A DNA stretch of 64,000 nucleotides from Terriglobia bacterium (GCA_020072965.1 JAIQFY010000010.1:108243-172242); one strand, 5' to 3'; counted from the first letter of the stretch, positions 1,577-61,389 are shown. The notes: generated by a model from the sequence alone, not told the origin. Numbers and translations are program-made.

Positions 1577-3640
1577 CTAACTTGCCTTTTTGGTGCTTTG
1601 GTATTCGACAATCCTACCCGCGATGGCGCTGGCGGCGACCGTATAAGGGCTCGCCAGGTAGACCTGACCCGGGCCACTGCGACCCGGAAAATTCCGGTTC
1701 TGCGAGCTCACGCTGACCTCGTCTTTCCCCTTCGACGCACCGGGGCCTGCATTGATGCATGCCCCACAACTCGGCTCAATAATCTGCGCCCCGACTTGCT
1801 GAAAGAGCCGCGTGTAGCCTTTCTGCTCGGCGTAGTTACGGGTCTCCTGGGAGCCAAACTGGATGTAACACTGCACTTCCGGGGCCACGTGCCTGCCCTG
1901 GGCAAGCGCCTCCCTGAAAACGCTGGCATACATGTCCATATCTTCGTTCTTGCCTGCCGTACAGGAGCCGCCGTAGGCAATGTCAATTTTCACTTCCCCC
2001 TGGAGTTCATCAATGAAGACCCCGTTCCCGGGATCTCCCGGCAGTGCCACCATCGGGCGAAGTCGGCTGGCATCGATTTCGATGACGGTGGCATATTGAG
2101 CGCCAGGGTCACCGGACCACCCCGCACAGTACATCTCAGCCTTGGACCTCGGCATCCCCCGCCTCTCCACCAGGAAGTCCACCACTTTCTGGTCAGGCGC
2201 CACGATTCCCGTGAACCCGCCAATCTCCGCCGCCATGTTAGTCATGGTCGCTCGCTCGTCCACCGAGAGCGCTTCAATCGCCTCGCCCGAGTACTCGATC
2301 ACTTTGCCCAGGGCGTCTCCATTCTTCACGTAGGGCATACGGAGGATCTCGAGAATCATATCTTTGGCTGTAACGTTATCGGGTTTCCTTCCATGAATGA
2401 CAATCTTCACGGTCTCCGGGATGCGGACGCGAACATCCTTCGTAATCCAGGCATTGAAGACGTCCGTTGTGCCGATCCCAAAAGCGATGCAGCCGACTGC
2501 CCCGCTGTGCGGAGTGTGACTGTCGCTGCCCACCACCACCTGGCCGGGGAGCGCGTAGCTCTCCAGAACCTTGCTGTGGCAAATCGCCTCACTTCCTTTT
2601 CGATCGGTTAATTCCCCGTGGACACGAATCCCCTGAACTTCGGCAAACGCCTGTTGTTTTCGCTTCAACTCGAAGGCTAGATCGAGGAGTCCCATCTTGA
2701 CCCGTTCCACCGGCATCACCTCATCCAGGAACGTCAGATGATCCCGGAAGAAGAGAATCGATGAAGGGTCGTTCACTCGTTCATTCTTTCCAACTAACTG
2801 CTCAAAGAAGATCGCTGCCATGGGAGTGACATACTCATGGCTGAACCGCAAATCCGCTCTCACAAATCCCGAATCGCCGGGCTTCACTCCAGAGACACCG
2901 ATTTTATTCGCTGCCAGATCGGCGACCATGTGCTTTGCAAAGATCTTCTCGGCGAGTGTCATCGGTCTCGATTGCGTATCGAGGGCTGGCAGGGATACCT
3001 GACCCTGAATGCGCGCCACATTAAAGTTGAAAAGCCCTCCAAACTCGACAATCTGCCTGGTAATCTCATCCTCACCGCGCGTGAATTCCTCGAGCGGAAT
3101 TTCCTCGCCCTGCCGGATCTTCCCGATGACATCAAAATTGGTGGTCACATACAATCCGAGGTTCTGGCAATTCTGTTTGTAAATCCGCTCGATATTCTCC
3201 GCCACGATGACTTGAATACCGGCGCACATCTCAGCGTAAGGGGACTGTTCCCGACTGGAGCCCTTTCCGCGGCGCTTCCCCGCCACCGCAGCGACGAATC
3301 CGCCCCCCCTTACAGAACCCCGGGTGACTGGAAATTCCTCGCGGCTGTTGCCCCCCTCCGTCGCAGTGCATTTCAAACCCAGATAAGGAAAATCTCCCAG
3401 GGTTTCGTCGAAGTAATAGCAAATGTAGGCCGGAGTAATCTCATCCGTGGAAATGTTATCGCGCAACCTAAGGGAAGGGTTCCAATCCAGGTCCTCCCCC
3501 CCCAACTGCATTTTCAAGAGCTTGGAGTCTTCTGTGAGAAAGAGAATTCGGCCTTCCAGCCGGACGCGCGGAGGGCGCCTTGTCACTTTACGGGTGAGTA
3601 ATGAAGAAATCATCTCGATGACCCTTAAAAGGAAATCCAA
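1577..3640 (-). CDS. Aconitase/3-isopropylmalate dehydratase family protein, fused, swivel (LeuD-like) domain N-terminal to the catalytic (LeuC-like) domains
   Basis: 687 aa. N-terminal region NISTDEITP... is LeuD/aconitase swivel-like. Then GSDSHTPHSGAVGCIAFGIGTTD (Fe-S ligand region) and a C-terminal SQNRNFPGRSG aconitase signature. The true start may be an internal Met. Confidence 0.75.
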   Translation of the reverse strand: MDFLLRVIEMISSLLTRKVTRRPPRVRLEGRILFLTEDSKLLKMQLGGEDLDWNPSLRLRDNISTDEITPAYICYYFDETLGDFPYLGLKCTATEGGNSREEFPVTRGSVRGGGFVAAVAGKRRGKGSSREQSPYAEMCAGIQVIVAENIERIYKQNCQNLGLYVTTNFDVIGKIRQGEEIPLEEFTRGEDEITRQIVEFGGLFNFNVARIQGQVSLPALDTQSRPMTLAEKIFAKHMVADLAANKIGVSGVKPGDSGFVRADLRFSHEYVTPMAAIFFEQLVGKNERVNDPSSILFFRDHLTFLDEVMPVERVKMGLLDLAFELKRKQQAFAEVQGIRVHGELTDRKGSEAICHSKVLESYALPGQVVVGSDSHTPHSGAVGCIAFGIGTTDVFNAWITKDVRVRIPETVKIVIHGRKPDNVTAKDMILEILRMPYVKNGDALGKVIEYSGEAIEALSVDERATMTNMAAEIGGFTGIVAPDQKVVDFLVERRGMPRSKAEMYCAGWSGDPGAQYATVIEIDASRLRPMVALPGDPGNGVFIDELQGEVKIDIAYGGSCTAGKNEDMDMYASVFREALAQGRHVAPEVQCYIQFGSQETRNYAEQKGYTRLFQQVGAQIIEPSCGACINAGPGASKGKDEVSVSSQNRNFPGRSGPGQVYLASPYTVAASAIAGRIVEYQSTKKAS

Positions 3641-7688: not shown

Positions 7689-8351
7689 ATGTCTCTGTTA
7701 GGTGAGAAGGAACAGGTAATCGTAAGCGAGCAATTTCAAAGGCTCGAGAATCCTGTGAGGATGATCCACTTTACCCAGGGCTTGATGTGTGACACCTGTC
7801 CCGAGACCCAGCGCCTCCTCGAAGACCTGGCATCCCTGTCTGACAAGGTCACCCTTGAGGTCCATAACTTTGCGATTGAACAAGAACTGGCGGCGCAGTT
7901 TCAGGTGGCTCGAGTCCCTGCAACTGTTATACAGACAGAGAAGGATTTTGGAATTCGGCTTTACGGGTTGCCTTCGGGTTACGAATTTGCTTCTCTATTG
8001 CACGCCATCCTGGCCGTGTCCCGTTCCGCCACCGAGTTGTCGGAGGAATCAAAGACCCTACTCCGATCCGTTACCACTCCTACTCACATCCAGGTGTTTG
8101 TGACCCCCACCTGACCGTATTGCCCCGCGGCCGTGAAGCTCGCGTACGAACTGGCAATTGAGAACGACTACATCACCTCGGACATGGTGGAAGTTTCAGA
8201 ATATCCGGATCTGATCCGCAAGTATCAGGTTCGAGGAGTTCCGAAAACCGTGGTGAACGATACCGTTGAGTTTGTTGGCGCTCTTCCGGAAGCAGAGTTT
8301 GTCGCGCAGGTTCTAAGAGGGGTAATCCCGGCCGGTTTGGAAAACAGGTAG
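7689..8351 (+). CDS. Two-domain thioredoxin-fold protein disulfide oxidoreductase (PDO/glutaredoxin-like), predicted selenoprotein with in-frame TGA (Sec) at 8112..8114 giving a UPYC active site
   Basis: Track ORFs 7689..8114 and 8133..8351 are in the same frame and separated only by TGA. Reading through gives ...VFVTPT-U-PYCPAAVKLAYELA..., i.e. a CPYC-type redox motif with TGA at the first Cys. The first domain has a CDTC motif. A SECIS-like hairpin follows. Confidence 0.6.
8115..8160 (+). promoter_or_regulatory. Candidate bacterial SECIS hairpin downstream of UGA 8112
   Basis: ccguaUUGCCcCGCGgccgugaagcuCGCGuacgaacuGGCAA: nested stems with a GU-containing apical loop about 15-25 nt after UGA. 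Not validated by folding. Confidence 0.3.
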
Positions 8352-12026: not shown

Positions 12027-12383
12027 ATGGAAAAGAAGCGTCTCGAGTATTACAAGAAGAAACTTGAAACCAAGTATTCAGAGCTGACGCAAACCGTTTC
12101 GAAAGTGGAGCATTACGGACGAGAAGTGGATGAAGAGCCAAGTCAGGATATTGCCGACAAGGCTTCCAATTCCTATGAGAAGGAATTTCTGTTTAGTTTG
12201 ACAAACAATGATCGTTATGTCCTTCAGCTTGTCCAGGAGGCGCTGGCGCGAATCCGCGAAGGATCCTTCGGTCACTGCATTGTTTGCGAAGAGGAAGTAC
12301 AACAAAAACGGCTTGAGGCCGTCCCGTGGGCGCGTCACTGTATCGAATGTCAGGAAAAGCAGGAACAGGGACTCTTGAATTGA
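12027..12383 (+). CDS. DksA/TraR family C4-type zinc-finger protein
   Basis: 118 aa. Coiled-coil N-terminus and C-terminal CxxC-x17-CxxC (CIVCEEE...CIECQEK). GAGGGGGGG RBS. Confidence 0.7.
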   Translation: MEKKRLEYYKKKLETKYSELTQTVSKVEHYGREVDEEPSQDIADKASNSYEKEFLFSLTNNDRYVLQLVQEALARIREGSFGHCIVCEEEVQQKRLEAVPWARHCIECQEKQEQGLLN

Positions 12384-12410: not shown

Positions 12411-13274
12411 CGTGTTTGCCGGTTCACTTCTATACTCTTCAGGAGGGTCGTCTTCGAACCGAGTAGTGATTGCACTCAAAACCTACCGCCGACCCCCCTG
12501 TGGAGGACCCTACTCCCCCCCGTCCTGGATTCACTCTTTTCGGTTTTACTCCCCGCCCACTGCGACCTCTGCCACGGACTGATTTCGCGAGCCTTTGACT
12601 CCACCGTCTGTGCTCGATGCTGGTCGAGCTTGCAACTGCTGAATGGTAATCTTTGCGACCTTTGTGGCAACCCCATCATCGCGACACTCGTCCCTCCCGG
12701 ATGGCGGTGCGGCCGATGCCGCCGCGGTCTCCATGAATTTGATTACTGTCGATCCTACGCGTTGTACGAGGACACGGTGCGGGAGGTGTTGCATCGATTC
12801 AAGTACGGCAGGCGGGCAAGATTGGGGGTTCGTCTGGCGCGATTGCTCTCACAAGCCTGGGCGCTCTATCCCCGTTTTCAGGAGGCCGAAGTGATTCTCC
12901 CGATGCCCCTTCACCGGCGACGAGAAAAAGAGCGGGGTTTCAATCAGTCCGGAATTCTGGCAAAATACCTGTCGGGGATGATTGGTCGGCCAATGGAATC
13001 AAGGGCCGTAGTCCGGATTCGAAACACCCCCTCGCAAACGGGCTTAAGCCCCCGACAGCGCCGACTGAACGTGTCGCAATGCTTTGAGGTCAGAAAACCC
13101 GCAGCTGTTCGGGGAAAGGCATGCCTGGTCATTGATGACGTTTTTACGACAGGGGCGACGTTAAATGCAATGGCCCGGGTTTTGAAAGAAGAAGGGGCCA
13201 CCAAAGTTTTGGCCCTGACGCTGGCTCGCGTTTCCCCACGCGCGGCGATCGGGGCGGCAAAGAAAGCGGCCTGA
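12411..13274 (+). CDS. comF: ComF/GntX family phosphoribosyltransferase-domain protein
   Basis: N-terminal Cys-rich region (CDLCHG...CARC...CDLCG...CGRC) and PRTase motif [13 protein letters not shown]. Start uncertain: the frame is open from 12405, and 12630 is the first ATG. Confidence 0.65.
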
Positions 13275-31362: not shown

Positions 31363-31914
31363 ATGCCAATAATAACAACGCAGGAAAAGGACATCGCCCC
31401 GGGAGGAAATCCGTTTGTTGAGCAAAATACGGAGTTTGGAGCCGGGGTGGTCACCACCTCATTTGACAAGGTGGTCAATTGGGCACGGAGGTCGTCCATC
31501 TGGCCGATGACTTTCGGCCTGGCGTGTTGTGCGATCGAAATGATGGCGATGGGGGCCTCCCGTTATGACATTGCTCGGTTTGGGGCGGAGGTCTTTCGCG
31601 GCTCACCGCGACAATCGGACTTGATGATCGTGGCCGGCCGAGTCTCAAAGAAAATGGCACCGATCGTGCGCCAGCTGTATGATCAAATGCCGGAACCGAA
31701 GTGGGTTATCTCCATGGGAGTGTGCGCTACGGCGGGCGGCATCTTCAACAATTACGCCATCGTGCAGGGAGTCAACCAGGTGGTGCCGGTGGATGTGTAT
31801 ATCCCCGGATGCCCGCCACGGCCCGAACAGCTCATTTATGGAATCATGAAGCTGCAGGAGAAGATCGATCGGCAGCGCGGGAGCTTCAAGGACCTTCTTC
31901 CTTTTGGGGGTTGA
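31363..31914 (+). CDS. nuoB: NADH-quinone oxidoreductase subunit B (NuoB / 20 kDa subunit), orphan copy
   Basis: 183 aa, N2 cluster ligands [10 protein letters not shown]...GVCATAGG...CPP. Confidence 0.85.
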
Positions 31915-32032: not shown

Positions 32033-32090
32033 CTACTTGCGCTCTCACAATAATTTACAGGCCTGACCAGAAAATTCAGGAGGGAGTTCT

Positions 32091-32528
32091 ATGTTGTCAA
32101 TCGGAGAGAAGGCCCCCGACTTCAAAGTGAAGACCCATGAGGGAAAGGAACTTTCGCTGGGCCAGTTTGCGGGGAGCAAAGTGGTCCTGTGGTTCTACCC
32201 CAAGGCTGACACCCCCGGCTGAACCAACGAAGGCAAAGGATTCCGTGATCGAATCCGAGAGTATGACGCAAAGAACATGAAGATCCTTGGAATCAGTTTT
32301 GATACGGTCGAGGAAAATGCCGCGTTTGCAAAGAAATTTCAGTTTCCCTTCCCCCTATTGTGCGACACTGACCGGAAAATAGGATTGGCTTATGGGGCCT
32401 GCGAATCGGTTCGGGATGAACACGCCAAGCGAATTTCATATGTGATTGGTGAAGACGGTAACATCCTTCAAGCCTATCCCAAAGTCGATGCCGCGCGCCA
32501 TCCGCAAGAAGTGCTGGAGAAGCTCTAG
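32091..32528 (+). CDS. Peroxiredoxin PrxQ/Bcp family, predicted selenoprotein with TGA (Sec) at 32220..32222 replacing the peroxidatic Cys
   Basis: Manual translation from ATG 32091 (AGGAGGGA RBS): MLSIGEKAPDFKVKTHEGKELSLGQFAGSKVVLWFYPKADTPG-U-TNEGKGFRDRIREYDAKNMKILGISFD... continues in frame into track ORF 32277..32528. FYPKADTPGxT is the Prx active-site motif with TGA at the Cp position. A possible resolving Cys is retained (LLCD, ACES). Confidence 0.7.
32238..32256 (+). promoter_or_regulatory. Candidate SECIS hairpin for Prx UGA 32220
   Basis: GGAUUC-cgugauc-GAAUCC stem-loop starting 15 nt after UGA. Apical loop contains GU. Confidence 0.35.
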
Positions 32529-33364
32529 TAGAATACCTTTTCGAGAAATAAACCGAACGGGGGCGCGGTCCACTCGGCCGGCTTTGGAGAGGGTTTGTAG
32601 AAGAAAGAACTAAATTCATCCCGAGTGCAGTTCCCTGCGCTCAATTCCACCATGCTCCCAACCAGGCGTCGGACCATCTTCCACAGAAATCGATCGGCGC
32701 GGATGTGAAAGGTCAACAGCCGGGCGTAACAAGGCCGGGTAATGCGGATCTCTCTCCACTCGCACTCATCCACGACGCACTGAAAGGAACGCTCTTCCTC
32801 TTCATCCGGATCACAAAAAGAGCGGAAGCTGTGCCTCCCGACCACGAGCTTTGCCGCCTCCTGGAGGAGGGGGAGTTTGATCTCGCGCCTTGGACACCAG
32901 GCGTGACGCCGCAGGAAGGGAGAGTAGCTTTCAACGATCTGATAGCGGTAGCTGCGAGAGCGCGCATCATGGCGAGCATGAAAATTCAGAGGAACGAATG
33001 CAGCGTGTGATACCGTCAGGTCCGCAGACAATCCGTTGTTCAGTTCCCGCATAATCTTTTCCGCCGACCACTGCCGTGGATCCTCCGTGTGATCCCCGGC
33101 ATGAAAAGGCGCTTTCAAGAGCGGGATATCGCGAGAGGCGGACTTTTCCGGCGGAGGGTCCCCATGAATGACGGCATTCACAACCTGGGCCTCGGCATGG
33201 ACGCCCCGGTCGGTTCGACCTGCCGCAATGATCCGCGGCTTTTCTTTCAGAACATCAATCATTGCCGACAGCAGCTGACCCTGGACCGTGCGAACGTCCT
33301 TTTGGATCTGCCAGCCATAGAATCGCGTACCTTCATAGGCAACCGTGAGCTTCAGGTTTCTCAT
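32525..33364 (-). CDS. truA: tRNA pseudouridine(38-40) synthase TruA
   Basis: 279 aa, catalytic AAGRTDRGVHAEAQV motif. Confidence 0.8.
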   Translation of the reverse strand: MRNLKLTVAYEGTRFYGWQIQKDVRTVQGQLLSAMIDVLKEKPRIIAAGRTDRGVHAEAQVVNAVIHGDPPPEKSASRDIPLLKAPFHAGDHTEDPRQWSAEKIMRELNNGLSADLTVSHAAFVPLNFHARHDARSRSYRYQIVESYSPFLRRHAWCPRREIKLPLLQEAAKLVVGRHSFRSFCDPDEEEERSFQCVVDECEWREIRITRPCYARLLTFHIRADRFLWKMVRRLVGSMVELSAGNCTRDEFSSFFYKPSPKPAEWTAPPFGLFLEKVFY

Positions 33365-35964: not shown

Positions 35965-38900
35965 CTAACGAGACGATTTCCCCACTGCCAGTGGCGAGCC
36001 GTCATCCCCAAAGAAGCTGAGCGCAGCGACGGAGGCCTCGGTGCCGATATTCAAGAAAATGAATTGGGTTTGATAGCCTCCCCCATCGGCGATTTGAGGA
36101 AAGATGATCGGGAAGGGGACAGGACGAGCCAGATCAGCGACTGGAAAGGTCGTCAGCAAAAAATCCCCACGCGCGGTGTTCAGCGAACGCATAGTCAGTG
36201 CCACGAAGCTGGCAGGAGCACTCATATCCAAGACCCCCTTGAAATCATCGGGAAGATCTGAAATCAACTCTCCCACAAACATTGCGGCGTGACCATTGGC
36301 ATTGAGATTCAAGAAGGCGAGACCCTTGCCGGCCGGGGTCCTGCCATCAAGGTGAAAAGCACTCAGGGCGATCGGGTCGGCGCCACTCTGGGGAAATGCA
36401 ATGGCTAAACCTGTGTCGTGGCCGTTCGATTTGTCAATGTAAATCCGCGCATGATTAGTCGGAAGGGCCGATGGAATTCCGGATTCCGTTACCAGGATTC
36501 CCCCCTGCGTGAGACCGAAAATCCCCGCACCGACCGGGACCTGGCTTCCTTGATTAGCTGTCACCCGGATCCAGCCCGAATTCACCGTGGGCGGTGAGCC
36601 GTCAGTTTGAAGCACAAAGATCCCCCCTGGTTTTATGGTATACGCAAAGGAGGAGCCCGAATTCCCAATGACCGGCCGGACCACACGCGGCGCCCCATCG
36701 TCTGCAAAAAGCTGAATGTTTCCGGTTTCGTCCAACCCCGAAGTGTTCAGCAAAACGACTGTCGACTGGTATCCGCCTCCATCAACTACATGTGCAAAGA
36801 AGAGCTCAGTTTCAGACGCAGTTTTCGTCAAATCGGCGATGGGAGTGGTGGTGATGAGCGTTTCACCCCGCTGATTCGTGGTTAACCGGAGGGCGACGAT
36901 GGAGAGCGGCTGGTCACTCCCGATTTCAAGGGAGCCAAATTTCGTGACTGTTGGAAAATCCGCGGCTAACTGAAAATCGGGGGCGACGTCATGAAGTTGG
37001 TCAATGAATTTGGAGAGGTGTGTACCAGCGGCGAGCACGCTGTGGCCCGAGGCCAACAGCTGACCGGCGGCATCCCGCAAGGTGAATGATACATTGGCCG
37101 CGTTCCCGCCGGGGTTTACGAGGGCGAATCCGGTGTCGATGCTAATGCTCGCTGCATCAGGATGATCAGATTTGGACGGTACACTGGTACGGTAATCGAT
37201 GAAGATCCGAGCCGCTGTTGTCGGCGGGGACACTGGAACACCCGCCTCAGTCACTACATGGCCGTTCTGTTCAAGACTAAACACGGCGGTCCCAACGAGT
37301 AATCCACTACCTGAACCCACGTCTACCGTGACATAGCCGGCTTGAACAAAGCCTGCCCCTTCCCTGGTGAAAACGGATTGCGCTCCGCCATCTATAAGAT
37401 TCATAGCGATCTGAGCATTAGCGGCCGGGCAGGAATTCAGGAGGACCGCATCGGGCGCCACAACATCGGGCTTTCCGTCTCCGTTGATGTCGCTAACTCC
37501 AATGAATGCGGAAGAGATGCCAAGGCTATAATCCACGGGGTTCTGTAAAGTGCCATCCCCGTTCCCCAAGAGGATCGAGACACTGGAGTTCAAATTAGCC
37601 ACTGCCAGATCGAGCTTGCCATCCCCATTGAAGTCACCGATCGCGAGGGAGCCGGCACTCGAAATGTCACCAAAACTAACCGGAGCCTGGAACGTCCCAT
37701 CCCCATTCCCCCTAAGGAGGACCACGCTACCGCTGAGGTTCATAAATGAGCGTCCCACGGCCAGATCGAGAATCCCATCTCCATTGAAGTCCCCTACGGC
37801 AATCTGCCCGGGCGAGATTCCCACTTCAATGGATCCAGCGTCCTGGAAGGTCCCATCCCCGTTTCCCCTGAGAAGCGCCACAAATCCAAGGCCTCCGACA
37901 CTGTTGCCGGAATCAATGACCGCCAGATCAGGAATCCCGTCGCCGTTGAAGTCTCCTGTCACGGCTGACGCCCCGGGATTTGTACCCGCAAGGTTATGGA
38001 TTGGCGGCTGAAACGTGCCATCCCCGTTCCCCAGTAAAATGGTGACATCCCCGCGCTGCGAGAAAAAGTTGTGCACCACCTGGCTGGGGTTCACTACCGC
38101 CAAATCGAGCATACCGTCGTTATTGAAATCTGAAACGACAATGTAGAAAGGATTTGATCCCGCCGCAATTTTCGAGGAAGCCTGAAAAGTGCCATCCCCG
38201 TTCCCCAACAGAATTGAAATGTCTTTGGAGGTGAAATTACTCACCACCAGATCCGTCTTTCCATCCCGGTTGAAATCGCCCGCGGTAACGAACACCGGAC
38301 TCGATCCGACAGGATAAGTCGATGGTGTTCGAAAAGAGCCGTCGCCATTCCCCAACAAGATTGCCAGCGTATCCGAACCCCGATTAGGCACTGACAGATC
38401 GGGTATTCCATCACCGTTCAGATCTGCCAGCCAGAATCGTCCCGGGCCTGATCCCGTGCTGTAGTTCACCGCACTTTGAAAAGTCCCGTCGCCCTTCCCA
38501 ACCAAAATGGCGAGGGTGTCGTTGGAGATGTTTGCTGCCGCCAAGTCGCGTTTCCCATGCCCCGTAAGATCCCCCACGGCAACAAACACGGAATTAAACG
38601 GCAGACTGATGGCCATCGGAGGCCGGAAGGAGCCATCGCCGTTTCCTAACATGACTGAAGAATCCGCCACCAGATCGAGATTGCCGTCGCCGTTGAAGTC
38701 GCCCGGGATGACGAATCCGAACGCGGTTCCAGGGCTGTCTATCGGGGCTTGAAAGGTACCATCTCCTTTGCCGAGCAAAATCGAGACCCTCCCATTCGGA
38801 CCCCGGACGGCGAGATCCGTTGTGCCGTCACGATTGAAATCGCCAGCAGCAAAAGGGATGGCTGCAGCGGCACCAACGCCAGGCCCATTCCGGAAGGTGC

Positions 38901-39627
38901 CATCGCCATTCCCCAACAAGATGAATACTGATTCCAGGCTCACTCCGGCGATCACCAAGTCTGCGATTCCATCGCCATTAAAATCTGCGGCGACCAGCGA
39001 GGAGGGAAACGTCGCCAGGGTGGTATCTGAAGTTGTCTGAAAGGTGCCATCACCGTTTCCCAGAAATACAGAGACACTCTTTGAGAATTGGTTTGCCACA
39101 ACAAAATCGAGTTTACCGTCCCGGTTGAAGTCGCCGGTCACGACGGAGTTCGGTCCGATGCCAGCCTGGTAGTCCGCGGCCGCCCCGAAGGAGCCATCAC
39201 CTTTACCCAGAAGGATCGACACATCGTTGTCCCGCTGATTCACCACCACCAAGTCGGGCTTGTTGTCCCCATTAAAATCTCCAATGGCCACGGACACCGG
39301 ATCGGATCCGACGCCATAATTCACAGCGGCCTGAAAGGTCCCATCCCCTTTCCCGAGCAGGATGGAAACATTGTTGGAACCGAAATTGACAGCGACGAGG
39401 TCTCCCTTGCCATCTCCGTTGAAGTCACCTATGGCCACGAATACAGGGGTAGCGCCGGCAATGAAATCGGGTTTCACTGAGAAACTTGGAGTCGTGCAGG
39501 CAATGGCGGCAGCAAGGAGGTTCCGTCCAACAATACCAGAGAGACTCACCATCATGAGCAGGACATACCAAAGCGTCCAGGAATGAAGACCAAGGTCCTT
39601 TCCGGTCTTATTGCTCACTTCTTTCAC
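35965..39627 (-). CDS. Large secreted FG-GAP/VCBS-repeat (integrin-alpha-like beta-propeller) protein with duplicated C-terminal domain
   Basis: 1220 aa. Signal peptide. About 17 repeats of GDFNGDGKxDLvv.N..sn.VSILLGNGDGTFQ. C-terminal ~450 aa contains two copies of an unidentified ~190-aa domain, each ending ...TTPIADL / ...TTFPVADL. Confidence 0.8.
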   Translation of the reverse strand: MKEVSNKTGKDLGLHSWTLWYVLLMMVSLSGIVGRNLLAAAIACTTPSFSVKPDFIAGATPVFVAIGDFNGDGKGDLVAVNFGSNNVSILLGKGDGTFQAAVNYGVGSDPVSVAIGDFNGDNKPDLVVVNQRDNDVSILLGKGDGSFGAAADYQAGIGPNSVVTGDFNRDGKLDFVVANQFSKSVSVFLGNGDGTFQTTSDTTLATFPSSLVAADFNGDGIADLVIAGVSLESVFILLGNGDGTFRNGPGVGAAAAIPFAAGDFNRDGTTDLAVRGPNGRVSILLGKGDGTFQAPIDSPGTAFGFVIPGDFNGDGNLDLVADSSVMLGNGDGSFRPPMAISLPFNSVFVAVGDLTGHGKRDLAAANISNDTLAILVGKGDGTFQSAVNYSTGSGPGRFWLADLNGDGIPDLSVPNRGSDTLAILLGNGDGSFRTPSTYPVGSSPVFVTAGDFNRDGKTDLVVSNFTSKDISILLGNGDGTFQASSKIAAGSNPFYIVVSDFNNDGMLDLAVVNPSQVVHNFFSQRGDVTILLGNGDGTFQPPIHNLAGTNPGASAVTGDFNGDGIPDLAVIDSGNSVGGLGFVALLRGNGDGTFQDAGSIEVGISPGQIAVGDFNGDGILDLAVGRSFMNLSGSVVLLRGNGDGTFQAPVSFGDISSAGSLAIGDFNGDGKLDLAVANLNSSVSILLGNGDGTLQNPVDYSLGISSAFIGVSDINGDGKPDVVAPDAVLLNSCPAANAQIAMNLIDGGAQSVFTREGAGFVQAGYVTVDVGSGSGLLVGTAVFSLEQNGHVVTEAGVPVSPPTTAARIFIDYRTSVPSKSDHPDAASISIDTGFALVNPGGNAANVSFTLRDAAGQLLASGHSVLAAGTHLSKFIDQLHDVAPDFQLAADFPTVTKFGSLEIGSDQPLSIVALRLTTNQRGETLITTTPIADLTKTASETELFFAHVVDGGGYQSTVVLLNTSGLDETGNIQLFADDGAPRVVRPVIGNSGSSFAYTIKPGGIFVLQTDGSPPTVNSGWIRVTANQGSQVPVGAGIFGLTQGGILVTESGIPSALPTNHARIYIDKSNGHDTGLAIAFPQSGADPIALSAFHLDGRTPAGKGLAFLNLNANGHAAMFVGELISDLPDDFKGVLDMSAPASFVALTMRSLNTARGDFLLTTFPVADLARPVPFPIIFPQIADGGGYQTQFIFLNIGTEASVAALSFFGDDGSPLAVGKSSR

Positions 39628-39716
39628 CTCCGATTACTCAGAACTTCACTCGTCAAACAAACCAATTCTAGCACTTTGGTCTCCGACTATTCGGATCTCG
39701 ATCGCAAGGTGATCCA

Positions 39717-42380
39717 CTACCTTGCGTTTTTCCCCACTGCCATGCTCGAGCCGTCGTCTCCAAAGAAGTTGAGCGTTGTGCTGGCCCCGCCTGTCGCGCT
39801 CAGCAGAATAAACTGAGTCGTGAATCCTCCACCGGCGGCGATTTGAGGGAAGATCATAGGGCTTGGGGCAGGCTGATTCACGTCCGCGATTGGAAAAGTG
39901 GTCAACAGAAAATCTCCGCCCGTGGCACTGAGTGAGCGAAGAGTGAGCGCCGCGAAGGGAGTCGCCGGGAGGAATATCGTTGGTAGTGAAGTGACATCCA
40001 AAACTCCGGTGAAGCCCTCGGGCAGGGATGCAATGAAAAACTGGTTGGCAAACTTAGCCGCATGTCCGTTGGGGTCGAGATCCAGGCTCCCCGTCGCGAC
40101 CGGCGTGATCCCATCCGCTTCAAATGCCGTGATCGAAGCATGAAGAGGCACACTCCCGGCAATGGCGATGGCCACCCCCGTGTTGTGCCGGTTCGTCAGA
40201 TCAACGTAGAGGCGTGCATGAGTGGTTAGATTTGCCGAGGGGATACCGGACTCGGTGACGAGATTACCAGCTCTCCGGAGACTGAATATCCCAGCGCCGA
40301 CCGGGGTCGTGGTCCCGGAATCTGGTGTAAGCTGGACCGAGCCTGCATTCACGAATTGCGGCGATCCGTCGGTCTGAAAGATGAAAACTCCCTCCGGGGG
40401 GATCAAGTATGGGAACGAGGATCCCGACGAACCGTTGATCGCATTCACCGATAGAGGAGAACCGGAATCGCTGAAGATTTTCAGATTCCCCGTCTCCACC
40501 CCCTCGGAGGTGTTCAGGAGCACCAGGGTCGTCCGGTAACCCCCTCCATCCACCAGTTGAGGAAAGGAAAGAGGATCTTGCGACGGGGCCTTGGTCAAAT
40601 CCGCGATGGGTGTGGTTGTCAGTAGCGTTTCCGATTGCTGGTTGGTAGTCAACCGCAACGCCACGATGGACATCGGTTCTTCGCTCGTGATCTCCAAAGA
40701 CCCAAATCCAACCTCAGTCGGAAAGTTCGGCGGCACAACCAAGCCGGGAGCCAGCTCAGTAATGAAGTTTGCCAGGTGAGCTTTTGAGGGGAGAGTTATA
40801 GCGCCTGAAGCCAGGACTTTCCCTTGTGAATCCCGTAACTTCAAGGCGATCTGAGCCGTATTTGTCCCAAGGTTAACCACGGCGAGCCCCGTGTTGACAC
40901 TGATTGCGCCTGAGCTCTCCTGATTGGACTTCGAAGGGACTACATTTCGATAATCAATAAAAATCCGGGCATCCAAAGTCGGGGGGGAAGCGGGGACGCC
41001 CGCCTCACTGACCACCACACCGTTCTGAACAAGGCTGAACACGGCAACTCCGTATGGCGCACTTCCCGAATTCGTATCAACGGTTGCGTAGCCTGCCTCA
41101 ACATTGCCGATTCTACCCAGCGTCGAAAGGGTGCCCGATCCTCCTGCCGTAACGGCGAGGGTCACGGAGCTCTTCGGGGTCAGGCAGGTGCTCAGATCAA
41201 TGTAAAGGTTGTTGAGAGAAGAATTGAACGCCGCCAAGTCGGGCTGTCCATCCCCGTTGAAGTCACCACTGATGAGGGAGCGCCCACCCACAGCGGCACT
41301 TAGGGTTGGGCCGATCTTAAAAGTCCCGTCCCCGTTCCCCCATAGAACTGAAACGTCCTTGGTGAATTGGTTGATCCCCGCCAAATCCGTTTTGCCATCT
41401 CCATCAAAGTCAGCCGTTACAAACGGACTCAGGCCGGCGGTGGCAAGATCTATCACAGGGGCCTGAAATGTTCCATCCCCATTGCTGAGTAAAACGGAAA
41501 TGACGCTGGCCTTCGACGCCGCTAGGTCGGTCTTCCCATCCCCGTTGAAATCGCCCGTTGCAACCAGTCCATCAAAACTGGATCCACCCAAGAAGCTCGA
41601 ACCTGGTTGGAAAGTCCCATCACCTTTCCCAAGCAAAATCGAGATCTCGCTGGTGGTCGCCACGGCCAAGTCTGTCTTCCCGTCACCATTAAAATCACCG
41701 GCAGCCAACGATTTGGGGGAAGACACAATCCCAATGTCCTGCGATGGCTGAAAAGTCCCGTCGCCCTTCCCCAGAATGATCGACACCCCTGTGAAACTGA
41801 CTACAGCCAAATCGAGTTTGTTGTCCTTGTTAAAATCGGCCACTGCTACATAGATCAAGATCGACCCCGGCACAAACACCAAAGGAGATTGGAAGGCGCC
41901 ATCACCTTTCCCAAGCCAAATCGAAACGGTGCTGGGACCTTGGAAATGTATGCTGCCGCCATTCTCAATCAGGACCAGATCCACCTTTCCATCCCCGTTA
42001 AAATCCCCCACGGCAGCGGAACTCACACTTCCTCCGCGAGTGTCCGAGTTGATGGGCAAGCGGAATGTTCCATCGCCGTTGCCGAGAAGGACAACAACAG
42101 AGAATGCGAGTGAGTTGATGTTGCCCCTATGGCTGAATCCAATGACATCGGAAATTCCATCCCCATTAAGGTCTCCAGCCACCACGAAAGAATCTCCTAA
42201 GTTGAGGTTAACGGTGGGAGCACCTAGAAAACCTGGGGTTGTGCACCCACTGGAGGCGTGCAATACCGATATTGGACCGTTGCATAATGCAAGAAGATAG
42301 ATGCTGAGTACCAACATGAAAGGAAAAAATTCGAAGGAACGGCGGCTTTTGTTCAGTATAGTCATTGCTGTGCACCTCAA
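39717..42380 (-). CDS. Large secreted FG-GAP/VCBS-repeat protein, tandem paralog of 35965..39627
   Basis: 887 aa. Same repeat type (GDFNGDGKTDLA...SILLGKGDGTFQ). Same C-terminal duplicated domain and C-terminal tail (NFFGDDGSSMAVGKNAR versus SFFGDDGSPLAVGKSSR). Confidence 0.8.
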   Translation of the reverse strand: MRCTAMTILNKSRRSFEFFPFMLVLSIYLLALCNGPISVLHASSGCTTPGFLGAPTVNLNLGDSFVVAGDLNGDGISDVIGFSHRGNINSLAFSVVVLLGNGDGTFRLPINSDTRGGSVSSAAVGDFNGDGKVDLVLIENGGSIHFQGPSTVSIWLGKGDGAFQSPLVFVPGSILIYVAVADFNKDNKLDLAVVSFTGVSIILGKGDGTFQPSQDIGIVSSPKSLAAGDFNGDGKTDLAVATTSEISILLGKGDGTFQPGSSFLGGSSFDGLVATGDFNGDGKTDLAASKASVISVLLSNGDGTFQAPVIDLATAGLSPFVTADFDGDGKTDLAGINQFTKDVSVLWGNGDGTFKIGPTLSAAVGGRSLISGDFNGDGQPDLAAFNSSLNNLYIDLSTCLTPKSSVTLAVTAGGSGTLSTLGRIGNVEAGYATVDTNSGSAPYGVAVFSLVQNGVVVSEAGVPASPPTLDARIFIDYRNVVPSKSNQESSGAISVNTGLAVVNLGTNTAQIALKLRDSQGKVLASGAITLPSKAHLANFITELAPGLVVPPNFPTEVGFGSLEITSEEPMSIVALRLTTNQQSETLLTTTPIADLTKAPSQDPLSFPQLVDGGGYRTTLVLLNTSEGVETGNLKIFSDSGSPLSVNAINGSSGSSFPYLIPPEGVFIFQTDGSPQFVNAGSVQLTPDSGTTTPVGAGIFSLRRAGNLVTESGIPSANLTTHARLYVDLTNRHNTGVAIAIAGSVPLHASITAFEADGITPVATGSLDLDPNGHAAKFANQFFIASLPEGFTGVLDVTSLPTIFLPATPFAALTLRSLSATGGDFLLTTFPIADVNQPAPSPMIFPQIAAGGGFTTQFILLSATGGASTTLNFFGDDGSSMAVGKNAR

Positions 42381-45187: not shown

Positions 45188-45778
45188 TCAAGGAAATTTC
45201 GTCACGGCGTCCACGACCTGCTGATCGGGCAAAAGCTTGCCTTCCACGTTTTCCCAGAGGATTTTCCCGTCTGTTCCCACCAGAAAGTACGTTCGCTTGG
45301 CCACCACGGAATGGATTCCCGGGACGTTGATTTCATGTTCGATGTGATAGTCCTTCACCACCTTGCGTTCCATATCACTCAGCAGAGGAAAGGGCAGACT
45401 CAGACTTTCTCTGAATTTATCCTGGGAAAAGGGTGTGTCGGTGCTGATTCCCCACACTTCGATGTTCTTGGCCTTTAACTTTTCATAATTCTCTCTGAAC
45501 CCAGAGAGCTCGGTCGTTCAACCCCCGGTGAAATCGAAAACATAAAAGGCCAGAAGGACCTTTTTTTTGCCGCGCATGTCACTCAATTTCATCGGGGTGA
45601 GTTTGGCTCCGGAGGGGAGGGCAAAGTCCGGTGCTGCGTCTCCCACCTTGGGGGGTTGCTCGCCGGTACTGACGGGAGGGGACGCACTTTGAGCTACTAA
45701 GGCTAATGTGGCCATCAGCATTACAGCCACAAAAAGGGACAAAACTAGAAACGTTTTTTTCATTGATTCCTTCCTCAA
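45188..45778 (-). CDS. Exported AhpC/TSA-family peroxiredoxin, predicted selenoprotein with TGA (Sec) at 45518..45520 at the peroxidatic position
   Basis: Track ORFs 45518..45778 and 45188..45457 are in the same frame. Reading through gives signal peptide ...[51 protein letters not shown]... The Prx FxxDFTxVCxTE motif has TGA in place of Cys. Confidence 0.7.
45491..45508 (-). promoter_or_regulatory. Candidate SECIS hairpin for UGA 45518
   Basis: mRNA: UGA acgaccgag CUCUCUG-gguu-CAGAGAG. 7-bp stem, GGUU apical loop 17 nt downstream of UGA. Confidence 0.4.
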
Positions 45779-59280: not shown

Positions 59281-61389
59281 TTACGCTTCCTCCTCTTCCT
59301 CCTCCTTACCAGCCCTTGCGGCCTTTGCGGCTTCTATGATCTTCTGGGATATCTGAGCCGGGACGATATCGTAATGTGAGAATTCCATGGCGTAGGTGCC
59401 CCGGCCCTGTGTTGCTGATGTGAGGACAGGCGCGTAGGTCAACATCTCGGCCATGGGAACCTGGGCCTTAATAATCTGGTTGCCTGCACGAGAATCCATG
59501 CCCTGGATACGTCCCCGGCGTGAATTCAGGTCCCCCATCAAATCTCCCGCATACTGCTCGGGAGCAATGATCTCCACATTCATAATGGGTTCGAGCAGGA
59601 CGGGCCTGGCCTGCTCCATCGCCTTCTTGAAGGCCAGTGAGCCGGCAATCTTAAAAGCCAGTTCCGACGAGTCGACGTCGTGATAGGAGCCGTCGTAAAG
59701 GATGGTCCTGAAATCTACGACCGGATAGCCGGCTAGAAAACCGCGGGAGGCAGCGTCGATGATCCCCTTCTCCACCGCCGGGATGAAATTGCGGGGGATG
59801 GATCCTCCGAAGATCTCATTCACAAACTCGAAGCCCTGTCCCCGGGGGAGCGGTTCCATCTTGATTTTGCAGTCTCCGTATTGCCCGTGACCTCCGGTCT
59901 GCTTCTTGTGACGGCCCTGCGCATCCGCTTTCCCGACGACGGTCTCCCGGTAGGGTACTTTGGGGGTTTTCAACTTGACTTCCACCTGATAACGCCGTTT
60001 CAGCCGGGACACGATGATTTCGATGTGTTGCTGACCCGTGCCCGAAAGCAGCAATTCATGGGTTTGCGGATCGCGGCTGAATCGGAGGGCAAGATCTTCC
60101 TCAAGGATTCTGTGGATGGCGGTACCGATGCGGTCTTCATCCTGACGCGACTTCGGTTCGATCGCAAACGCGATGGCGGGCTCAGGGAATTTGACCGGCC
60201 GGTAATAAATCGGATGCGCTTTGTCCCCCAAGGAGTCTCCGGTCAAGGTATCTTTTAGTTTGGCGACCGCCCCAATATCTCCAGCCCTCAACTCGGGAAC
60301 CGCAGTTGTATTTTTTCCCTGGAGCACGCCAATGTGGGCCATCTTTTCGGACGATCCGCGGGTAAAGTTATGGACGGTGGCATCGTTCTTCAGAATTCCC
60401 GAGTACACCCGAAAGTAGGTGACCCGGCCTGCAAACGGGTCGGCCACTGTCTTGAAGACAAACATCGAAAGCGGCTCGTCTTCCGCCACCTTGCGGATGA
60501 TCTCCTCTTCCCATTGAGGCGATACATGCCCCACCACGGGTCGCGCGTTGGCCGCGGGCATGTAGGCGACAACCGCATCAAGAAGATTTTGAGCACCGAT
60601 ATTGTAAAATCCCGATGCACACAGGACGGGCACGATGCGGCGCTCCAGGATGGCCTGTATCAGACCCTTTTCAAGATCCTCTACCGGCAAGGTTCCCTTT
60701 TCAAAAAACTCCTCCATCAGGGCATCGTTCCCCTCGGCAACCTGTTCCACAAGCGCCTCGTGCGCCTTTTGCGCGGCATCCTGCAATTCCGGCGGGATGG
60801 CACTCTCCGTCGCCTTGCCGCTGCCTGAGGTGTCATAAAGGTAAGCCTTCATACAGATGAGATCGATGACTCCTCGAAACACTTTTTCCACGCCGATGGG
60901 AAGTTGAATGGCCACCGGAGTGCGTCCAAAATTCTGCCGGATCGATTCCAGGGAGCGCTCAAAACTGGCGCGCTCCCGATCGAGTTTGTTCATGATGATG
61001 AGGCGGGGGAGGTTGAATTCATCGGCAAACGACCATACCTTTTCGGTCTGCACTTCCACGCCGGCCACGGCATCAACGACCACCACTGCCCCATCAGCCA
61101 CCCGCAACGCCGCCCGCGTGTCGTTGATGAAGAAGCCATACCCCGGGGTGTCGAGGAAGTTGATCTTCGTCTTGTTCCATTCCGCGTAGGCGAGGGAAGT
61201 ACCGATGGTAATCTTCCGCTCGATTTCCTCTTCGTCATAGTCAGTGACCGTGGTCCCGTCGTCGACGCGACCCAGCCGGTTGACCATTCCCGAAGTAAAT
61301 AAAAGCCCGGAGACAATTGAGGTCTTGCCTGAACTTCCATGTCCCACAAAACAGAGATTGCGAATGCTTCCCCCCTCGTAGACCTTCAC
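59281..61389 (-). CDS. Elongation factor G paralog (EF-G2-like) with non-canonical switch II and poly-Glu C-terminus
   Basis: 702 aa, five-domain EF-G architecture. P-loop GHGSSGKTS. G3 DTPGYGFF (Tyr instead of the catalytic His of DxPGH). NKLD. Tail KEEEEEEA. Confidence 0.8.
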   Translation of the reverse strand: MKVYEGGSIRNLCFVGHGSSGKTSIVSGLLFTSGMVNRLGRVDDGTTVTDYDEEEIERKITIGTSLAYAEWNKTKINFLDTPGYGFFINDTRAALRVADGAVVVVDAVAGVEVQTEKVWSFADEFNLPRLIIMNKLDRERASFERSLESIRQNFGRTPVAIQLPIGVEKVFRGVIDLICMKAYLYDTSGSGKATESAIPPELQDAAQKAHEALVEQVAEGNDALMEEFFEKGTLPVEDLEKGLIQAILERRIVPVLCASGFYNIGAQNLLDAVVAYMPAANARPVVGHVSPQWEEEIIRKVAEDEPLSMFVFKTVADPFAGRVTYFRVYSGILKNDATVHNFTRGSSEKMAHIGVLQGKNTTAVPELRAGDIGAVAKLKDTLTGDSLGDKAHPIYYRPVKFPEPAIAFAIEPKSRQDEDRIGTAIHRILEEDLALRFSRDPQTHELLLSGTGQQHIEIIVSRLKRRYQVEVKLKTPKVPYRETVVGKADAQGRHKKQTGGHGQYGDCKIKMEPLPRGQGFEFVNEIFGGSIPRNFIPAVEKGIIDAASRGFLAGYPVVDFRTILYDGSYHDVDSSELAFKIAGSLAFKKAMEQARPVLLEPIMNVEIIAPEQYAGDLMGDLNSRRGRIQGMDSRAGNQIIKAQVPMAEMLTYAPVLTSATQGRGTYAMEFSHYDIVPAQISQKIIEAAKAARAGKEEEEEEA

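Follow-up and report, generated by a model that had tools for sequence, protein, structure and literature searches.

Peroxiredoxins that carry selenocysteine (Sec) in the TxxU/PxxxTxxU motif of the PF00578 domain are an established family of bacterial selenoproteins, which a 2026 review lists and for which PrxU of Eubacterium acidaminophilum supplied the experimental verification (PMC13188914). A survey from 2006 gathered 12 such sequences (Zhang et al. 2006, PMC1794560 supplementary file 4), including BCP-type versions from Geobacter metallireducens, Anaeromyxobacter dehalogenans, Syntrophobacter and Syntrophus (PMC1794560), of which the first displays the motif FYPKDSTPGUTKEANGFRD (PMC1794560 supplementary file 4). 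The same survey counted three selenoprotein families in Acidobacteria (PMC1794560). Here, we present an analysis of a 64,000-nucleotide stretch from a Terriglobia bacterium (GCA_020072965.1 JAIQFY010000010.1:108243-172242; hereafter the window, which always means this whole stretch) and of a peroxiredoxin gene in it with an in-frame TGA at codon 44 (UGA-44 in the message). We predict that the locus is one gene and that its product, 145 residues long, is a thiol peroxidase of the BCP/PrxQ type with a thioredoxin fold and with Sec in place of the peroxidatic cysteine (Cp), and we put the probability of this reading at roughly 0.92.

The BCP-type class of Sec-peroxiredoxins was already catalogued by 2006 and, judged by its sequence, the predicted selenoprotein of the window is an ordinary new example of it. 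However, the Sec-peroxiredoxins of the 2006 survey come from anaerobic Deltaproteobacteria and Firmicutes, whereas the clade to which the window gene belongs is drawn from Acidobacteriota and Binatia and has the Sec form in the majority (67/80 related loci). A literature search aimed at BCP-type Sec-peroxiredoxins in Acidobacteriota, with incomplete coverage of the literature, returned nothing specific; with the same incomplete coverage, no paper was found that describes the acidobacterial/Binatia BCP clade, the prevalence of Sec forms in it, or the two registers of the selenocysteine insertion sequence (SECIS) that are presented below. The text of the BSepDB paper makes no mention of peroxiredoxins.

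Family, subfamily and the resolving cysteine

With a Cys placeholder at the UGA, the joined product scores 117.6 bits against PF00578 (E = 4.3e-34; the cutoff is 26 bits), and the match covers positions 1-122 of the 124 in the profile. Each piece also finds this profile by itself, with the N-terminal one, i.e. the 43 codons upstream of the TGA, covering positions 1-40 (E = 1.2e-10) and the C-terminal one covering positions 61-122 (E = 5.1e-11); therefore, the TGA lies inside a single domain. The protein is also matched by PF08534. Of its 18 matches in the Protein Data Bank (PDB), the top 15 are BCP/PrxQ-type, most of them named BCP, and the last three are longer peroxiredoxins; the best is 3drn (E = 9.4e-22), followed by the Xanthomonas BCP and others. 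The active-site motif reads P37-K-A-D-T41-P-G-U44 and the PDB alignment puts the UGA in the column of the cysteine in the 'tpgCt' of the BCP structures, while Arg114, matched in that alignment by the arginine of both 3drn and 5enu, is invariant across the family (81/81 sequences). The best NCBIfam models are likewise those for Bcp (NF006960, 103 bits against a cutoff of 140) and PrxQ (NF053650, 96 bits against 260), both of them below cutoff. The PrxU model NF040737 scores only 43.6 bits against an equivalog cutoff of 270, and the protein is therefore not a PrxU member; the Prx-SUH model NF045827, which has a CxxU motif, gave no match at E <= 0.001, the window motif being TxxU. Together, these comparisons identify the predicted product as a peroxiredoxin of the BCP/PrxQ subfamily, with both family and subfamily being unambiguous.

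This bears out the central claim of a preliminary description of the window, which had read the locus as a PrxQ/Bcp peroxiredoxin with TGA replacing Cp: the UGA column is aligned both to the Cp of solved BCPs and to the U of catalogued Sec-peroxiredoxins, with no homolog alignment moving Cp elsewhere. It had proposed comparison with PrxQ and with known Sec-peroxiredoxins, and the BCP structures indeed proved to be the best matches and the catalogued BCP-type Sec-proteins to share the U column; its choice of the PrxU type as the reference group was mistaken. The Sec-peroxiredoxins of G. metallireducens and A. dehalogenans (A. dehalogenans_1) share the fold and subfamily with the window protein and are 37-39% identical to it over the full length (E ~1e-35), with a common context of FYPK-x-x-T-x-G-U-T-x-E-x-x-x-F-R-D in which the U falls in the identical column. 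They differ in length, with 151-156 residues against 145; the compact proteins of the window clade do not have the insertion of about 6 residues that precedes the Arg strand in the catalogued forms, and the window protein has Cys where these have Ser in the PLL-C-D motif. Cysteine-containing BCP/PrxQ proteins, such as E. coli Bcp (NF006960), Sulfolobus Bcp1 (3DRN) and Xanthomonas campestris BCP (3GKK/5IIZ), share with it the fold, the aligned PxxxTxxC motif and Arg, and both Pfam domains, and a thioredoxin-dependent mechanism would be expected for the window protein too. In contrast to them, it has predicted Sec at Cp, scores below the NCBIfam cutoffs, and possesses neither the E. coli-type Cys at Cp+5 nor the Xanthomonas-type Cys in helix alpha3. 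PrxU of Eubacterium acidaminophilum, reportedly presented as a Sec-peroxiredoxin by Sohling et al. in 2001, belongs to the same superfamily, depends on thioredoxin and has Sec as its peroxidatic residue, but it is of a different subfamily and longer (the NF040737 model has a length of 233).

The absence of both usual resolving cysteines is seen at the level of individual positions. At Cp+5 (codon 49, 32235-32237) the window has Lys49 and thus no CxxxxC arrangement. In helix alpha3, Ala78-Phe79 align with the N-F that precedes the mutated Cys84 position of 5IPH, Ala80 standing at that position; Phe79 is invariant among the 81 sequences of the family. Certain characterized BCPs also have no Cys at Cp+5, so that its absence does not rule the protein out of the subfamily. 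Within the family, Cys49 is kept in 11/13 Cys forms as opposed to 21/68 Sec forms, the remaining Sec forms having Arg, Ser, Lys or Asn. This suggests that the Sec forms may preferentially drop the cysteine at Cp+5, which would imply a changed catalytic cycle. A candidate for an alternative resolving thiol is the invariant Cys91 (Table 1), whose position is occupied by Ser in the PDB BCPs and in the second peroxiredoxin of the window, a predicted secreted protein described below.

The reading frame and the stem-loops downstream of UGA-44

Retranslation recovers the ATG start at 32091 and the WFYPKADTPG-TGA-TNEG context that had been noted beforehand: the frame reads MLSIGEKAPDFKVKTHEGKELSLGQFAGSKVVLWFYPKADTPG-TGA-TNEGKGFRDRIREYDAKNMKILGISFDT...HPQEVLEKL and closes with tandem TAG TAG codons at 32526-32531. 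The frame past the TGA does run, as claimed, into an 83-codon open reading frame (ORF), and a mechanical ORF list has in the same frame a 43-aa ORF at 32091-32222 and this 83-aa ORF at 32277-32528. The anticipated miscalling is real, with two public assemblies annotating separate 43-aa and 83-aa genes at the locus. The split ORFs are present on 5 contigs on record, and the two places that were read come from different samples (ENA ERZ27247940 and Logan SRR15677233).

A scan of one genome per species yielded at least 504 relatives, the best 80 of which (L001-L080) form, with the window gene, a family set of 81 sequences (68 with TGA and 13 with Cys). The homologs begin at the same Met as the window gene. 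The Cp codon is TGA in 67/80 of these loci and TGC or TGT in 13/80, with the protein being conserved on both flanks; because of these 67 loci, the placement of TGA at Cp is far beyond chance. The TGA forms are spread over the Terriglobia, Thermoanaerobaculia, Polarisedimenticolia, Vicinamibacteria, Binatia and 'Marinacidobacterales'. One genome of the last (OZ240210.1) has four copies of the gene (L023, L025, L041 and L075), and its L041 copy shows an extra in-frame stop at codon 14 (SV*DHTG) and may be a decaying paralog. The closest relatives of the window protein, L001-L003, are 79-88% identical to it in amino-acid sequence. Among the top-ranked matches listed from a large protein database there are only Cys forms, at no more than 66% identity, as against up to 88% for the TGA forms found in genomes. 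Compared with L001-L003, the ratio of nonsynonymous to synonymous substitution rates (dN/dS) lies at 0.05-0.11 on either side of the UGA, codons 45-62 included, and both halves of the gene are thus under purifying selection.

The region just 3' of the UGA is in addition constrained at the level of the RNA. Synonymous divergence (dS) against L001 is 0.20 in codons 45-62 and 0.69-0.84 in the remaining gene, and it is low in these codons against L002 and L003 as well (Fisher p = 0.03, 2e-4 and 5e-4 for L001, L002 and L003), although the Fisher tests used here treat related sequences as independent and so overstate significance. Most TGA homologs share a stem-loop that we call type A: it has the consensus GGUUSCGG-GUU-CCGSGACC, with an 8-bp stem starting 9 nt after the UGA and an energy of -11.9 kcal/mol, and can be written as GGUUGCGG-GUU-CCGCGACC (at about 3130-3192 in most of L004-L080; alignment A1, columns 13-31). 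Seven or eight of its pairs form in 61/68 TGA sequences compared with 1/13 Cys loci, and in the 68-sequence alignment 93.1% of the cells of the helix are paired, as opposed to 35-55% after sliding of the partner columns. Compensatory changes are seen at pair 17-27 (GC 40, CG 16, AU 4), the observed values being reached by 0/500 shuffles. This pair joins the middle base of codon 49 to the third, synonymous base of Arg52, such that Cys UGC, Arg CGC or Ser UCC at codon 49 covaries with CGC or CGG at Arg52 and keeps the pair. The flanking codons show the same dependence on TGA: Phe51 is TTC in 63/63 TGA sequences, while Cys forms have TTT in 8 and TTC in 4, and Gly50 is only GGG or GGA in the TGA loci, the synonymous choice at Gly50/Phe51 being free in the Cys loci (Fisher p = 3e-8).

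A bacterial SECIS is expected to be a stem-loop close 3' of the UGA whose small apical loop includes a G (PMC1088965), and type A agrees with this in most homologs, with covariation in support. From these patterns we conclude that a bona fide SECIS is present in the family.

In the E. coli fdhF-type SECIS, the minimal stem-loop lies about 11 nt after the UGA and exposes G and U in its apical loop. Type A, starting 9 nt after the UGA, resembles the fdhF element GGUUGCAGGUCUGCACC in position, size and GU-containing loop.

In the window itself type A is broken, with 5/8 pairs, three mismatches in the stem and a loop changed to AUU (G->A), and a penalty of +3.8 kcal/mol arises when the type A fold is imposed on the window sequence. 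There is instead a different hairpin, type B (Table 1), which begins 15 nt and enters its loop 21 nt after the UGA; the second and third loop bases are GU. The 19-nt hairpin evaluates to -5.2 kcal/mol in isolation, while the centroid fold in context has -6.6 kcal/mol. The 6-bp stem and CGUGAUC loop formally fit the definition of a SECIS, although the hairpin is not significant by itself. Like fdhF it has GU in the loop, but it differs in its start 15 nt after the UGA, in its 7-nt loop and in having no bulged U, and its register departs from that of the element in most of its own homologs. L001-L003 share its stem without change, and the stem grows to 7-8 bp in L003, L059 and L064 (-7.6 to -11.0 kcal/mol). 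The G->A change in the type A loop occurs in six TGA sequences (the window, L001, L002, L003, L059 and L064), and these are exactly the TGA sequences with a perfect 6/6 type B stem; they fall in three separate places of a neighbor-joining tree made with SECIS-overlapping residues masked, which is based on about 120 sites and has no support values. Counting either hairpin, an intact one is found in every TGA sequence compared with 3/13 Cys loci. Type B is rejected as a structure of the whole family, with 60.5% of its cells paired and no compensatory changes. The hairpin at 32238-32256 was thus correctly located by the preliminary description, which had placed it 15 nt after the UGA, and the SECIS check that it had called for finds it folding and shared by L001-L003; however, it is not the usual SECIS of the family, a stronger type A beginning 6 nt further upstream in most homologs.

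Alternatives and the selenocysteine machinery

Certain observations weigh against the above reading, and most of them concern the window hairpin. By itself this hairpin is unremarkable, with z = 0.15 against dinucleotide shuffles and P = 0.15 under resampling of synonymous codons, which match or better it 15% of the time; hence, we rely on comparative evidence, where the treatment of related sequences as independent in turn inflates the Fisher tests. Type B shows no compensatory pairs across the family, and the Cys-form loci L053 and L079 have 6/6 type B pairing, so that coding for GFRDRI alone can yield the pairing. These two loci are TGC forms from metagenome-assembled genomes of Blastocatellia, with the pairing GGGUUC...GAAUCC at about 3148-3166, and they could either be recent Sec-to-Cys converts with a relic SECIS or owe the pairing to the coding of GFRDRI. 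Such facts would suit a version of events in which the gene does encode a Sec-peroxiredoxin but the 32238-32256 hairpin is a by-product of coding for G-F-R-D-R-I, with SelB binding some other target, e.g. the GGRUUCCG core, near-invariant in all TGA loci whatever their hairpin type, in another fold, or with recoding being inefficient. This would touch only the identity of the SECIS and is compatible with the predicted Sec-peroxiredoxin. We regard it as unlikely, if still deserving of real weight: against it stand the cost of the type A fold in the window, the perfect type B stem of all six sequences with the altered loop at three tree positions, its extension to 7-8 bp in three of them, and its invariance in the window and L001-L003 amid synonymous changes in the loops and the rest of the gene. 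We accordingly favor the shifted hairpin as the probable replacement SECIS of the window clade. That the SECIS was remodeled within a single orthologous family, with type A lost and a hairpin with a CGUGAYC loop arising 6 nt downstream at three tree positions, that of the window clade among them, is a more tentative proposal, which we would place somewhat short of even odds.

The remaining alternatives dispute the selenoprotein itself. The absence of Sec-machinery genes from the available sequence, taken up below, and the calling of two fragments would both be expected if the TGA were a nonsense mutation in the catalytic Cys codon, or an artefact of assembly or sequencing, with only fragments or nothing being made. 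But TGA recurs at the same codon in 67 genomes from many orders, the Cys-form codon differs from it by a single base (TGC/TGT), the ORFs recur on the 5 contigs with two different samples read, and dN/dS is low on either side; conservation and selection effectively refute a pseudogene, the probability of which we take to be very small. Scarcely more probable is that near-cognate tRNAs insert Trp or Cys at the UGA, or that the organism has a code giving TGA a sense meaning. While such decoding could draw on the same missing machinery and on Sec insertion being deduced from sequence, TGA is the ordinary stop of 15/40 Pfam-supported genes of the window, and the commonest stop there, which points to the standard genetic code; further, Cys is the only other residue at the column in homologs and the covarying, conserved stem-loop is confined to the TGA forms. 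Tryptophan at Cp would, by established peroxiredoxin chemistry, inactivate a peroxiredoxin. The least credible alternative, to our mind almost negligible, is that of two proteins, a 43-aa peptide ending at UGA-44 and an 83-aa protein re-initiated at the ATG at 32277. This ATG exists and is used by gene callers, but no Shine-Dalgarno sequence precedes it and its Met is replaced by Thr in L001 and Ala in L002. Moreover, the 18 codons between the UGA and this ATG are under selection (dN/dS 0.11-0.29) and match the peroxiredoxin profile and helix alpha2 of BCPs, and neither fragment alone has a complete peroxiredoxin active site. Taken together, the conserved TGA, the selection, the non-conserved ATG, the standard code and the recurrent contigs rule out a pseudogene or a misassembly as well as a recoded genome or two polypeptides.

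Against the Sec reading, neither selA, selB and selD nor tRNA-Sec was found in the 64-kb window (by Pfam annotation of about 40 ORFs), its right flank of about 9 kb or 60 related loci. With ARAGORN, the window yielded no tRNA at all, and those 60 loci yielded no tRNA-Sec. As the machinery was not found in the available sequence, the Sec-decoding trait is deduced only from TGA-containing genes. A GTPase at 59281-61389 has the architecture of EF-G, and the gene at the left edge of the window has no match on record. An Rfam scan of the whole window at the gathering threshold gave no matches, which is uninformative for bacterial SECIS elements.

Two further TGA-containing redox genes in the window lend indirect support to a Sec trait (Table 1). 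The first is a predicted selenoprotein of the protein disulfide oxidoreductase (PDO) kind with CDTC in its first thioredoxin-fold unit and U-P-Y-C in the second, which scores 260.6 bits against the 'PDO_seleno_TRX' model TIGR02187 (curated cutoff 185), the equivalent of the 'AhpF N-terminal domain homolog' family among known selenoproteins; the structure 3' of its UGA is unconvincing alone (coding-aware null P = 0.30). The second is a predicted secreted peroxiredoxin, which is 42% identical to a catalogued Anaeromyxobacter Sec-peroxiredoxin and which, 9 nt past its UGA, has a 7-bp stem closed by a GGUU loop (coding-aware null P = 0.008; energy -9.1 kcal/mol). A mechanical scan for TGA-split ORFs returned 99 raw candidates, all but three of which were out-of-frame or low-complexity noise or ordinary stops. 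A DksA/TraR-like zinc-finger ORF at about 12027-12383 (+) was discarded as a read-through candidate, its TGA at 12381-12383 being an ordinary stop with no redox context; it is in frame with the following gene for a ComF-like phosphoribosyltransferase at 12630-13274 (+).

Table 1. Features of the window bearing on the predicted selenoproteins
Feature	Position	Strand	Evidence
Shine-Dalgarno-like AGGAGG, 7 nt 5' of the ATG	32078..32083	+	direct sequence reading
Complete coding sequence of predicted Sec-containing BCP/PrxQ-type peroxiredoxin, 145 codons, ATG to TAG through TGA codon 44	32091..32528	+	translation, PF00578, homologs
In-frame TGA, codon 44, predicted Sec at peroxidatic position (PKADTPG-U-T)	32220..32222	+	homolog codons, alignments
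Codons 45-62, low synonymous divergence, overlap with putative SECIS	32223..32276	+	dS against L001-L003
Putative SECIS hairpin type B, 6-bp stem GGAUUC/GAAUCC, loop CGUGAUC	32238..32256	+	folding; stem shared with L001-L003
Invariant Cys, codon 91 (PLL-C-D), candidate resolving thiol	32361..32363	+	81/81 family members; role predicted
Conserved active-site Arg, codon 114 (AK-R-ISYVIG)	32430..32432	+	invariant 81/81; aligned to Arg of BCP structures
Predicted selenoprotein PDO, two thioredoxin folds	7689-8351, TGA 8112-8114	+	TIGR02187
Predicted selenoprotein, AhpC/TSA peroxiredoxin with signal peptide, FDFTGG-U-TTE	45188-45763, TGA 45518-45520	-	PF00578 E = 3e-34

Proposed mechanism, annotation and genomic neighborhood

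Based on the established bacterial Sec pathway, the ribosome arriving at UGA-44 would meet SelB-GTP bearing Sec-tRNA(Sec), tethered by the downstream mRNA stem-loop, and Sec would be inserted against competition from RF2, whereupon translation would proceed to the TAG at 32526. We posit that the SECIS role falls to the 8-bp type A element with its GUU loop in most family members and that the overlapping type B hairpin takes over in the window clade. In line with peroxiredoxin chemistry, Thr41 and Arg114 of the PxxxTxxU...R site would activate the U44 selenolate, which would then attack H2O2 or an organic hydroperoxide to give a selenenic acid. Given the Lys at Cp+5, reduction of this selenenic acid would probably run via Cys91 or Cys104 or be carried out directly by a reductant of the thioredoxin or glutaredoxin type.

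The value of the locus lies mainly in annotation, in that gene callers still split such Sec genes in two. With such split calls, only Cys forms among the top-ranked database matches and a Sec majority in the clade, both antioxidant gene content and selenium dependence are systematically under-annotated in these abundant environmental bacteria, i.e. Acidobacteriota, Binatia and relatives. The 68 TGA and 13 Cys sequences also form a clean natural data set for the constraints on a SECIS that overlaps coding sequence and for Sec/Cys exchange at the peroxidatic site. Neither of these points alters the present understanding of selenoproteins. Remodeling of the SECIS, if true, would represent natural turnover of this element under coding constraint and inform on the variation in position and loop that SelB tolerates.

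The peroxiredoxin gene is isolated in its neighborhood, and a simple scan for a sigma-70 consensus promoter found none for it. Upstream, across a spacer of 176 nt, it adjoins a NuoB-like gene (31363-31914, +; Oxidored_q6, 183 aa), an arrangement that is kept in both public contigs examined, with no further complex I subunits nearby. At its other end, truA (32525-33364) converges on its stop codon. Further along, downstream of a methylmalonyl-CoA mutase gene, 35965-42380 (-) is taken up by two very large tandem genes with FG-GAP/VCBS repeats, coding for 1220 and 887 aa.

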